From contig JAKSOL010000036.1 of NCBI GenBank assembly GCA_024405635.1, positions 1 to 10,916 of the forward strand: 10,916 nucleotides of DNA, given 5' to 3'. This document shows, one piece after another, positions 1 to 10,916 of the stretch. A program made the translations under genes and the position numbers. The notes below the pieces were generated by a model. That model was not told the DNA's origin and did no database searches. It worked only from the letters and a program-made list of their open reading frames with translations. This stretch comes from Salinivirgaceae bacterium. GTDB taxonomy: Bacteria; Bacteroidota; Bacteroidia; Bacteroidales; SZUA-534. The first letter of the stretch is position 1; each line of letters opens with the position of its first letter.

Positions 1-229
1 TAAAGTATTTTACTTGCGCTGTGTCGCCATTCACTGATTGATAAAGAGTTAGCAACTCGTCTTGGCTTTTGTATTGGTAGGTTTTGCTTTCAATTTGTTT
101 CAACTTTGATACTACTTCGGTGGGTAGGTTTTTAATGTTTTTCTTGAAGCGCTTGTCGGATGATTTGGTACACGAAACAGAATATTTAAGATATTGCGCA
201 CTAACTGTTTGTGCGCTAACTGAACTAGT
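1..229. repeat. Left arm of inverted repeat (partner 10652-10880)
   Basis: Reverse complement of 1-229 aligns without gaps to 10652-10880, with 12 mismatches by manual count (about 95% identity). Confidence 0.95.
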
Positions 230-847
230 GCTAACAGAACCAGAGTTGACACATCCTAGTGCTTTAATAGTACCATTAACGGCACAGTCACCACCTACGT
301 TAAGCAAACTAGTAGTTGTTGATGGATAACCAATTGTTACTTTACCACTAGTTTTTATTGTATTACAATTTACATCGCCAGTAACTGTAGATGTACTTGA
401 AGAGGTTGAATTTCCTTGATTAGACCCAATTTTTTCTATTATTATGTCTTCAATTGTTTTGGCTCCAATTATTAATGTAGATCCGTTTTCAATAGTAATG
501 TTGCCTGCAAAAGCACTATTACCATTTACTCGCAACTTTTCATTGGTATTAGGTGTAGCACCTATACCTAATTGACCATCATTTCCCCAAATTATTGTTC
601 TGCCCGTAAACTTTGAAACACCTTTTACATAAAGTTTATAATTATTATCTGGATTAGTTCCAATTCCAAGATTTCCATCAAGTTTTGTGTTACCATTTAG
701 ACTTGTAGTTCCTTTAACATTAAGTTTATAATTATTATTTGAATCGTATTCGCCAATATTAACATTGCCATTTGTCCCAACTTCAATTTGCGCAAACGAT
801 GCGTTTGCAATAGCCACTGCAACTATTGCTAGTAGTGTTTTCTTCAT
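1..847 (-). CDS. Secreted tail-fibre-like protein with peptidase S74 (intramolecular chaperone) domain, copy L; 3' end runs off the window
   Basis: Manual translation from the ATG at 847 is open for 282 codons to the edge. It starts MKKTLLAIVAVAIANASFA|Q (Sec/SPI-type signal ending in Gln), has repeated GNxGIG...YKLxVKG units, then SSDKRFKKNIKNL (S74 S-D-x-R-x-K motif, 143-160). It is absent from the ORF track because it has no stop in the window. Confidence 0.88.
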   Translation of the reverse strand, partial: MKKTLLAIVAVAIANASFAQIEVGTNGNVNIGEYDSNNNYKLNVKGTTSLNGNTKLDGNLGIGTNPDNNYKLYVKGVSKFTGRTIIWGNDGQLGIGATPNTNEKLRVNGNSAFAGNITIENGSTLIIGAKTIEDIIIEKIGSNQGNSTSSSTSTVTGDVNCNTIKTSGKVTIGYPSTTTSLLNVGGDCAVNGTIKALGCVNSGSVSTSSVSAQTVSAQYLKYSVSCTKSSDKRFKKNIKNLPTEVVSKLKQIESKTYQYKSQDELLTLYQSVNGDTAQVKYF

Positions 848-1190
848 GTTTTAATAAGTAGATTATAGTTTTTTGAGCAAGTTTTGGTTTGCTCCTTTTG
901 TTAAAAATTGTTTTCTCTTAAGTTAAATTATTTCCATCGCTCCAACCTTGTTGGTTAATGGCTCTACATAGTTGTGTTGTCTGTTTTGTGCAAAAAAGGT
1001 TTGCGCCACACACCCAGCAGCTTGTAAACAATAAAATATCAAGAGGTATAAAAACAAAAAACGTGGGTGTAGTTGCTCTTCTTGGCACAAAACCAGTAAA
1101 ACAAAACGTTTTCTGCGTTTAACTTCTATCACTTTAGTTCATAAACAACTTGGTGTGGTTGGTTTTGGGTTGAGTATGAAGAATGGTGAT
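848..1190 (-). ncRNA. Candidate structured 5' leader RNA, copy L
   Basis: Homologous to 9707-10039. It has conserved blocks separated by non-triplet indels, helices maintained in both copies and a 34-nt identical block (941-974). Confidence 0.6.
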
Positions 1191-1194
1191 GCGG

Positions 1195-1202
1195 TAAACT
1201 TA
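1195..1202 (-). promoter_or_regulatory. Putative Bacteroidota -7 promoter box variant (TAagTTTA) for the copy L leader and gene
   Basis: One mismatch to TAnnTTTG. The same TAnnTTTAcc occurs at the equivalent position of copy R, where strong homology begins. Confidence 0.5.
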
Positions 1203-1233: not shown

Positions 1234-1291
1234 ATATATTTTTATGGTATATATTTTTATGGTATATATTTTTATGGTATATATTTTTATG
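1234..1291. repeat. Tandem repeat, 15-bp unit ATATATTTTTATGGT, about 3.9 copies
   Basis: Perfect units at 1234, 1249 and 1264, plus a 13-nt partial unit at 1279. Confidence 0.95.
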
Positions 1292-9287: not shown

Positions 9288-9694
9288 CACATAAATCTGT
9301 TGTTGACCTTTTGATAATGGTTGTTGTTTTTGATGATGGTGATATGCTTTCGTATTTTCTCTGCATTAGCAGATTAGCATTCTTCATACTCAGCAAACGG
9401 TAGCTCCAAATGCACCTTGTGCTTACAAGGTAACACGCGAACACGGCACAACCGAATTCCTTGAAAAAGTTTACGATGTGTTTACTCAAATGCAAGCTTT
9501 ATATCAAAGAAATATGTCGTTTGCTAACTAACTGATAATCAACTTTGAATAACATAAAAAACGTTATCTCTTCTCTTTTTTTTGTGCAGTTTTCAAAAAA
9601 TTCTGAATATATAATTGCTATCATATTAATATATGAAATATGTACATATAGCATAAAACATAGACCAGTCATCTAAGCATATAAATCAATTTTA

Positions 9695-9702
9695 TACCTT
9701 TA
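9695..9702 (+). promoter_or_regulatory. Putative -7 promoter box variant (TAccTTTA) for the copy R leader and gene
   Basis: Positionally equivalent to 1195-1202; one mismatch to TAnnTTTG. Confidence 0.5.
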
Positions 9703-9706
9703 CCAC

Positions 9707-10039
9707 ATCACCATTCTTCATACAAAACCCAAAACCAACCCGCCAAGTTGAGTATGAACTTGAGTGACAGATGTAAAAAAGCAGAAAACGGTATTCTGAG
9801 TTTGTTTTTGCAAGCAAAGCAATAGCCACCCACGTTTTTGTTTTTGTACCTCTTGTTTAAATTTTTAACCAGCTACTTGGGTGCGTAGCACAAACCATTT
9901 ATGCAAAAAACAGACAGAACCAACTATGTAGAGCCATTAACCAACAAGGTTGGAAAAATGGAGAAGAAAAGCCAAACAATTAAAGGTGAATGAGCAAGCC
10001 TTAAGTTGCTCAGAAAACTAAATACTTCTTAAAACAATT
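9707..10039 (+). ncRNA. Candidate structured 5' leader RNA, copy R
   Basis: Homologous to the reverse complement of 848-1190. It shares the same helices and the invariant block at 9921-9954. Confidence 0.6.
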
Positions 10040-10916
10040 ATGAAAAAAATATTTATGGCAATAGCCGCTGTAGCTATTGCAAGTGCATCGTATGCGCAAG
10101 GAATTGAAGTTACCGAAACACAAAATGTATTATCGGGAAAGAGTTATTTTAATGGGAATATAGGTATTGGAGATAATCCAAATACCGATTATAATTTGTA
10201 TGTCAAAGGGAAAAGCTATTACAATGGAAATGTTGGAATTGGAGTTTTTCCTAGTACTACTCCTCAATATGATCCGACAAATACTACTACACAGACATCT
10301 TATAAACTAAGAGTAAGAGGAAATTGCGAATTTAAAGGTAGTGTTGATATTGATGGCGACATTACTATCTCAAAAAATCACACATTAAAAATTGGAGATA
10401 AAACGATTGATCAATTTATAACGGATAAATTAGGCTCCAATCAAGGAGCAACAGCAACTCCAAGTGCATCTGCAGGTTCAACAAATGACGATGTTAATTG
10501 TAAAACTATAAAAACTAGTTGTAAGGTTACTATTGGCAATCCTTCATCTACCACTAACATGCTAAATGTAGGGGGAGATTGTATTGTGTATGGAGTTATT
10601 AGAACACCCGGAACGGTTAATGCAGGAAATGTTAGCGCAAACTCTGTGAGTACTAGTTCAGTTAGCGCACAAACAGTGAGTGCACAATATCTTAAATACG
10701 CAGTTTCGTGTACCAAATCATCCGACAAACGCTTCAAGAAAAACATTAAAAACCTTCCTACCGAAGTAGTATCAAAATTGAAACAGATTGAAAGCAAAAC
10801 CTACCAATACAAAAGCCAAGACGAGTTGCTAACTCTTTATCAATCAGTTAATGGCGACACCGCGCAAGTAAAATACTTTAACACCAACCGCGACCAATAC
10901 GGTTTCCTAGCCCAAG
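10040..10916 (+). CDS. Secreted tail-fibre-like protein with peptidase S74 (intramolecular chaperone) domain, copy R; 3' end runs off the window
   Basis: Open for 292 codons from the ATG at 10040. It has the signal MKKIFMAIAAVAIASASYA|Q, GNIGIG/GNVGIG...LxVxG repeats, SSDKRFKKNIKNL (10721-10738) and YGFLAQ (the S74 GFIAQE-type motif) at the window edge. Confidence 0.9.
   Translation, partial: MKKIFMAIAAVAIASASYAQGIEVTETQNVLSGKSYFNGNIGIGDNPNTDYNLYVKGKSYYNGNVGIGVFPSTTPQYDPTNTTTQTSYKLRVRGNCEFKGSVDIDGDITISKNHTLKIGDKTIDQFITDKLGSNQGATATPSASAGSTNDDVNCKTIKTSCKVTIGNPSSTTNMLNVGGDCIVYGVIRTPGTVNAGNVSANSVSTSSVSAQTVSAQYLKYAVSCTKSSDKRFKKNIKNLPTEVVSKLKQIESKTYQYKSQDELLTLYQSVNGDTAQVKYFNTNRDQYGFLAQ
10652..10880. 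repeat. Right arm of inverted repeat (partner 1-229)
   Basis: About 95% identity (12 mismatches in 229 nt) to the reverse complement of 1-229. Confidence 0.95.

Follow-up and report, generated by a model that had tools for sequence, protein, structure and literature searches.

A repeated modular cassette, probably a promoter plus leader, upstream of S74 fibre-like genes and other secreted-protein genes in a Salinivirgaceae genome

The window analysed here is an entire contig of 10,916 bp (C30) from a 2.66-Mb Salinivirgaceae genome in 36 contigs; the other contigs are numbered in the same way. Both ends of the window fall within outward-facing genes for S74-domain (endosialidase-chaperone) fibre-like proteins, which we call copy L (left) and copy R (right), and each is preceded by a long non-coding leader. 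The genes between them are mostly housekeeping genes (lumazine synthase, pheS, sufE/sufS, and others), one of which has no Pfam match, and no recombinase gene was found among the window genes scanned with Pfam. The features discussed below are collected in Table 1.

The two leaders are homologous: the minus strand of 848-1230 and the plus strand of 9679-10039 can be aligned over about 380 nt by BLAST and by direct alignment, with 76% identity. A preliminary description of this DNA had proposed homology between 848-1190 and 9707-10039, and had further noted that the indels are not constrained to triplets, that the leader is non-coding, and that it is better conserved than the N-terminal coding sequence that follows it. 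These points were confirmed by the alignments, and no ORF is common to the copies. Identity between L and R in 50-column windows was 56-88% in the leader and 6-64% in the N-terminal and central coding sequence, and rose higher still, to 88-100%, in the C-terminal S74 part. The signal-peptide region of copy L (788-847) is 78% alike to that of copy R (10040-10099); the fibre genes thus have conserved ends and a variable middle. The inverted S74 paralogues with their homologous leaders bound the whole contig (1-1300 and 9600-10916), and recombination between them would invert the 8.5 kb of mostly housekeeping genes that they enclose. The joints shown for four runs, taken from contigs only, included none of this kind. 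A look-alike of the first 24-27 bases of the leader lies on the plus strand 335 nt upstream of copy R (9366-9392), and the repeat listing gives it as 83% identical to 9700-9723 and 81% complementary to 1171-1197.

Table 1. Positions of the features in the window, with the proteins encoded behind the copies on other contigs
Feature	Position	Strand	Evidence or remark
S74 (endosialidase-chaperone domain) fibre-like gene, copy L	2..847	-	ORF; Pfam Peptidase_S74 (PF13884), E 3.4e-07; runs off contig end
Hairpin/palindrome GAGCAA-N8-TTGCTC, 6 bp	875..894	-	27 nt before ATG; stem invariant, loop differs from copy R
Non-coding leader, copy L (haplotype A)	848..1194	-	76% to 9679-10039; 97-100% to C33 copy over about 320 alignment columns; no Rfam match
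Core common to all nine copies (ACACCCACG ... GGTTGGAG)	925..1070	-	core alignment; covariance model matches nine genome copies
P2, extended: imperfect inverted repeat I13, 27 nt, 74%, around 79-nt core segment	972..1104	-	repeat listing
P1 of the preliminary description	1138..1180	-	12-nt arms 1169-1180 and 1138-1149, 10/12 complementary
-7-like box TAAGTTTA, putative promoter of copy L	1195..1202	-	5/6 fixed positions of TAnnTTTG
Four 15-bp tandem repeats (CATAAAAATATAT + 2 nt) upstream of box	1234..1291	-	repeat listing; degenerate in copy R
-7-like box TACCTTTA of copy R	9695..9702	+	motif comparison
Non-coding leader, copy R (haplotype B)	9703..10039	+	88-94% to C9, C15, and C16 copies; 217-nt RNA-library contig over 9729-9945
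S74 fibre-like gene, copy R	10040..10915	+	ORF; Pfam Peptidase_S74 (PF13884), E 7.7e-09; runs off contig end
S74 protein behind C33 copy			338 aa
S74 protein behind C16 half copy			354 aa; gene intact
Lipoprotein-like protein behind C15 copy			575 aa; no Pfam match
Esterase-like lipoprotein behind C28 copy			weak matches, below curated cut-offs
Protein behind C34 copy			501 aa; Flg_new repeats and Por_Secre_tail T9SS sorting domain

A search of the whole genome with a profile of the leader revealed five full copies (C30L and C30R, which are the two in the window, C33, C15, and C9), two half copies, on C16 and C27, that contain only the 3' part (from profile position 153), one diverged copy (C28), and four fragments (one on C31, two on C34, and one on C9). 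With a covariance model of the 148-nt core, nine core copies were found, dispersed over C9, C15, C16, C27, C28, C30, C33, and C34. Many copies sit at contig breaks, and the C9 and C27 contigs break at the same point within the cassette; together with three arrays of the 15-bp repeat at contig ends, these breaks make the copy count a lower bound. A gene starts within about 90 nt downstream of all seven core copies whose downstream side is assembled, while two more run off their contigs, and none of the copies found by the profile search is located inside a gene.

S74 genes follow four of the core copies (C30L, C30R, C33, and C16). The proposed specificity of the leader for the S74 family did not survive the search, because three other gene types carry it (Table 1); in addition, the leader profile has no match at the S74 paralogue on C17 or at the four large S74 proteins that this genome also encodes. 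Behind the C33 cassette, a gene for a 701-aa protein of the Peptidase_C25 (gingipain) family starts 4 nt after the S74 gene (C33:122867-124972).

At the start of the leader, a box of the form TAnnTTTA was found at the matching place in all five full copies. The promoter-like box of the preliminary description stands as a Bacteroidota-type -7-like box that lies at the start of the leader, is sense to the gene, and is reused before other ORFs, but it agrees with the consensus at only five of the six fixed positions and has no TTTG at -33. The transcription start site would be expected next to this box. A sigma-70 scan, which is unsuited to Bacteroidota, gave counts equal to those of shuffled sequences. 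A second promoter-like motif, TTTG-N17-TAAATTTT (9858-9865), is found inside the leader in haplotype B only and is absent from haplotype A. Its spacing is shorter than that of the promoter consensus, and it could conceivably serve as an internal promoter of haplotype B.

Upstream of the box, C30L, C33, C9, and C15 have tandem repeats of 15 bp in common, of which C30R has a degenerate form. The statement that strong homology begins at the promoter-like box thus holds for the L/R pair only, whereas among C30L, C33, C9, and C15 the homology continues about 95 nt further upstream, through the four tandem repeats. Multi-unit arrays of the repeat occur at seven places in the genome. Four of these adjoin a leader, and the other three are cut off by contig ends, suggesting that the latter belong to unassembled copies of the cassette; an array within a contig but without a leader was found at none of the seven places. 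The arrays outside the window (C33:121409-121468, C9:364-423, C15:11-70, C9:61233-61292, C22:24-68, and C24:22-66) have four units where fully assembled. The arrays and the box stay in register with the leader, and the arrays are candidate binding sites for a regulator. Beyond the array of copy L, just 3' of the lumazine synthase gene, a hairpin with a 15-bp stem and T-runs on both strands (1317-1351) looks like a two-way terminator separating that gene from the cassette.

In the metatranscriptome run X1, a contig of 217 nt covers 9729-9945 at a depth like that of housekeeping genes, although such contigs show neither strand nor ends and may derive from DNA. A contig of run X2 (loose end at 1198) starts in the leader and reaches 40 nt past the box on its upstream side, which could reflect either an earlier transcript start or DNA in the library. 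The contig over 9729-9945 does not prove transcription, and the leader is putatively transcribed over its whole length. The sense strand of the leader has a mild excess of A over T and of C over G. In run X3, contigs have the T-run that follows CCACCCACG within the core (9834) lengthened by +TT and +TTTT, and these differences may be due to variation among paralogues or strains or to variation in homopolymer length.

Comparison of the copies revealed a modular and mosaic make-up. The C33 copy is 97-100% identical to haplotype A (C30L) up to alignment column ~320 and thereafter 87-100% identical to haplotype B (C30R). C27 consists of an unrelated module, U2, followed by haplotype A and then haplotype B, and C16 consists of U2 followed by haplotype B. 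U2 is 220-314 nt long, is common to C16, C27, and C34 with 84-87% likeness, and takes the place of both the array of repeats and the leader's 5' half (C16:45928-46240, C27:190-500, and C34:14799-15021). The junction near profile position 153 is common to several copies. The leader is therefore not the single multi-domain unit that had been proposed: C16 and C27 have only its 3' half behind an unrelated module, and yet C16 precedes an intact S74 gene.

Parts of the cassette also occur alone. The box together with the first ~50-55 nt of the leader recurs directly before the ATG of an orphan ORF with an Rhs_assc_core domain (C34:28301). This ORF (C34:28301-29128), the one that was scanned, is the last in an array at C34:22050-29128 in which an identical 20-nt ORF start occurs five times, and only the last start has the promoter module of the cassette before it; the array looks like a set of Rhs orphan cassettes. 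On the minus strand of C9:45695-45782, the box and about 50 nt are followed by an ORF of 13 codons (MKTTTNRQQPSKK) and then by a G+C-rich hairpin with a T-run, with atpB ~350 nt downstream. This segment resembles either a small transcription unit that ends in a terminator or the remnant of an Rhs orphan start. Profile positions 54-164 occur alone on C31, 3' of a gene in a convergent spacer, and positions 1-87 and 24-86 occur alone on C9 and C34.

Two small ORFs within the leader were considered and rejected. The frame over NYVEPLTNKVG is open in both L and R, but its start is not shared, a 1-nt indel lies just upstream, and the C28 sequence as read has a stop in the frame. An ORF of 25 codons with a TTG start (23 codons in its ATG form) lies at 9748-9825 on the plus strand in haplotype B leaders, and by reading we found it in an altered form in the C31 fragment and cut at the fifth codon (TAA) in haplotype A.

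The separate modules, the lone fragments on C31, C9, and C34, the shared junction, and the frequent contig breaks at copies would all be expected if the copies were remnants of an intergenic repeat (MITE/REP-like) that was mobile or spread by recombination and plays no part in the genes nearby. However, the repeat listing of the window contains no inverted repeat at the cassette ends, its only entry of this kind being I13, which is internal to leader L. Furthermore, each of the seven core copies that could be assessed faces the start of a gene next to it, no copy is within a gene, and the arrays and the box keep their register with the leader. We consider this explanation improbable.

Outside this genome, the leader was found in none of the 32 other genomes of the family, either by BLAST (0/32) or with the covariance model (0/32). 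S74 proteins, in contrast, are present in 29 of these 32 genomes, and across the order in 79 of the 151 genomes (this one included), so that S74 specificity is not supported across genomes either. An nhmmer search with the leader on 29 S74 loci of other families, some of which have < 150 nt upstream, also gave no match (best E 0.72). The spacers upstream of S74 genes in other genomes followed no consistent pattern within the short flanks available, several being > 550 nt without an ORF >= 100 aa and others being 16-51 nt. A degenerate 32-nt pattern of the core had 0 matches in the collections genome_contigs, metagenome_contigs, and viral_contigs, from which records of this genome or of near kin may be omitted, and BLAST gave no match in phages or plasmids. 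Judged by these searches, the cassette appears lineage-restricted, being found in this genome only among the relatives searched.

The preliminary description interpreted 848-1190 as a structured, multi-domain cis-regulatory leader RNA. On this view, a 5' UTR of ~340 nt would fold into domains (the P2 helix around the core, small hairpins, and a further hairpin close to the ATG) and would act on the elongation, stability, or translation of the mRNA that follows. All the helix arms that it named are present where it placed them, and the hairpin GCTGC/GTGGC in one copy versus GCTAC/GTAGC in the other has indeed two one-sided G-U/A-U changes. In the hairpin at alignment columns 190-207, two pairs vary through G-U/A-U only. 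Covariation, however, was not found. Over the five full copies, none of the 42 pairs in the six proposed helices had changed on both sides, and 500/500 shuffles reached every measure. RNAalifold gave an unfavourable covariation term both for the five full copies (+3.84; 1/76 pairs compensated) and for the core of eight copies (+0.38; 0/25 pairs compensated); with about three independent sequence types, these tests have low power in either direction. In the six helices, 88% of cells are paired as against 32-39% with slid partners, a comparison biased by the fact that the helices were read off the same sequences. The claim that both arms of P2 had changed with pairing kept was not confirmed by these counts, a result that depends on the placing of a 2-nt gap. 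A deeper alignment had been proposed as a further check, and none could be built for want of homologues outside the genome. Two outcomes that the preliminary description itself had set against an RNA element, namely an alignment without covariation and homologues independent of gene context, were each seen in part, the latter in the fragment on C31.

A scan with Rfam 15 by E-value, covering the window and eight loci with other copies or fragments, gave no match to a known family within any leader, a check that the preliminary description had proposed; the matches listed are all outside the leaders and far below the gathering score. One of them, to Thr_leader (E 0.032; 31.5 bits vs 55), was rejected as sub-threshold and located 5' of the C33 cassette. 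The z-scores for folding of the whole leader were -1.68 (L) and -0.92 (R) in the sense direction, similar to the antisense value of -0.94, the other antisense value being +0.77.

The individual helices gave a mixed picture. The arms of P1 are complementary to the extent proposed, but one arm is damaged in each haplotype without compensation. The 5' arm in L is the exact complement of the 3' arm in R, implying that each haplotype has spoiled one arm, and P1 would fit a 12-bp repeat that was once perfect. The pair 36/64 is unpaired in 5/5 copies, and C28, C34b, and C9b have retained the 5' arm but lack the 3' arm. The P2 duplex of L (-21.6 kcal/mol) is far more stable than its shuffles (mean -9.4 +/- 2.4; reached by 0/500), and that of R (-16.4 kcal/mol) is modestly so (reached by 11/500). 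In C15 and C28, P2 is not beyond shuffles (p about 0.1), and its 5' arm is absent from C16, C27, and C34. The local fold of the P2 domain had z-scores of -2.0 in L and -1.97 in C28, but of only -0.10 and +0.26 in R and C15, which are of haplotype B. The helix ACACCCA/UGGGUGU forms in the haplotype A fold. Between C28 and haplotype A, the arm opposite UGGGUGUGUGG differs by C/U transitions opposite G, and as read from the folded sequences pairing is kept on the sense strand only; this is weak evidence for an RNA fold, because an arm opposite G tolerates any transition.

The hairpin nearest the gene has a stem that is invariant in 5/5 copies with a differing loop, and one flanking pair is compensated in C15. 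It scores as terminator-like on the opposite strand, and in the sense direction neither leader has a terminator-like site. Both minimum-free-energy folds leave the final ~27 nt ahead of the ATG unpaired. The expression platform of a riboswitch or antiterminator, as had been suggested, was thus not detected in either leader.

Taken together, these tests do not support 848-1190 as a folded regulatory RNA. The P2 duplexes in L and R, the local folds in L and C28, the two hairpins, the mild strand skew, and the contig of the RNA library over the leader speak for one; against it stand the pairs of the proposed helices, which never change on both sides, the unfavourable covariation terms, the arms that are lost in several copies, and the lack of an Rfam match and of a sense-strand terminator. 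We regard a structured leader as unlikely and leave some weight on it because of the P2 signal and the length of the leader, which a plain promoter and UTR do not explain. Quite unlikely, too, is the extended version in which a lineage-specific leader RNA of ~340 nt, with the P2 helix around its core, would exert shared post-transcriptional control over a regulon of secreted and surface proteins (S74 fibres, T9SS protein, and lipoproteins), and in which the alternative 5' modules (the promoter with 15-bp repeats or U2) would provide different inputs.

The same palindromes could instead act in the DNA, as protein-binding or invertase sites of a switch or operator such as a small invertible promoter. 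The elements concerned would be the 12 bp of P1, the 27 nt of P2 around a 79-nt segment (which contains TTTG-N17-TAAATTTT in haplotype B), and GAGCAA-N8-TTGCTC. Surface-protein genes are often phase-variable in Bacteroidales, and the genes concerned here encode surface proteins; I13 flanks the promoter-like motif, and the 3' palindrome has invariant half-sites and a variable spacer. Nevertheless, the inner segment has one orientation in 8/8 aligned copies, the promoter-like motif is absent from haplotype A, the window has no recombinase gene, and no strand-changing joint over either leader was found among the joints shown for the four runs, which derive from contigs with rare variants dropped. 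Moreover, the 79 nt between the arms are short for an invertible segment. A DNA-level switch is therefore highly improbable.

The reading that we favour, with moderate confidence, is that 848-1190 is one copy of a repeated, modular promoter-plus-leader cassette whose copies are kept alike by duplication and recombination or gene conversion. The cassette begins with four 15-bp tandem repeats and a -7-like promoter box; about 340 nt of non-coding, A/C-rich leader come next, and then the start codon with a conserved signal peptide. It, or its core, precedes the S74 fibre-like paralogues and, besides these, no fewer than three genes whose products are secreted or lipid-anchored, and the likeness of the copies would come from duplication and gene conversion and not from selection on an RNA fold. 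In this case, the cassette would give its genes the same promoter and a long 5' UTR for which little structure is predicted, and the surface genes would as a set be under one transcriptional input, for which a protein binding to the 15-bp repeats is a possible mediator. Along with the conserved 3' end of the S74 genes, it might also provide two homology arms between which the variable middles of the fibres are exchanged. A 5' UTR of ~340 nt would be far longer than the median lengths of 24-32 nt given for Bacteroidota (PMC9723704).

If this ordinary reading is correct, the locus is mainly a caution. In multigene families of surface proteins, the non-coding flanks can seem better conserved than the gene when recombination homogenises the ends while the middle diversifies, and helices picked by eye in two such paralogues therefore carry little weight. 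At the same time, a portable promoter cassette with four 15-bp repeats would mark a set of surface genes as a candidate regulon in a Bacteroidales lineage about which little is known, and the conserved arms would mark where fibre variants may be exchanged. Should the RNA element be true after all, it would be a rare, species-restricted regulatory RNA common to unrelated genes for secreted proteins.

The cassette resembles several known systems in part. Like MITE and REP elements, it is multi-copy and intergenic, with dispersed fragments and a broken assembly; unlike them, it has no terminal inverted repeats in the window listing, and the orientation of its core copies is tied to the downstream genes (7/7), with one fragment, on C31, lying elsewhere than upstream of a gene. 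Invertible promoters at surface loci of Bacteroidales have inverted repeats around a promoter segment, and the cassette likewise has, upstream of surface-protein genes, a short segment that contains a promoter-like motif and is flanked by imperfect inverted repeats. Its segment, however, is very short and keeps the same orientation in 8/8 copies, and no recombinase is encoded in the window. With riboswitches and other structured leaders, the cassette has in common some local complementarity and a lengthy non-coding region that separates a promoter-like box from the start codon. Structured 5' regions and the Flavo-1 motif are described for Flavobacterium (PMC9723704). In contrast to these and to the cis-regulatory families of Rfam, the cassette has neither an Rfam match nor covariation, a terminator, or sequestering of the start site, and in contrast to riboswitches it occurs in one genome only among the relatives and collections searched and is modular rather than one unit. 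The vsp genes of Mycoplasma bovis and the vpma genes of M. agalactiae are families with conserved 5' UTRs and signal-peptide regions (PMC2268961). Here as there, the non-coding 5' region and the signal peptide are highly alike among paralogous surface-protein genes whose mature parts vary, and the shared 5' region, which is a substrate for recombination in the mycoplasmas (PMC2268961), may have such a role in the cassette. The vsp and vpma genes are clustered, and a single promoter is moved among them by a neighbouring tyrosine recombinase at sites in the 5' UTR (PMC2268961). The cassette differs from them in that no recombinase was found in the window and no inversion among the joints shown from contigs, and in that it also serves unrelated genes, its copies lie on at least 7 contigs, and each full copy has a promoter-like box of its own.
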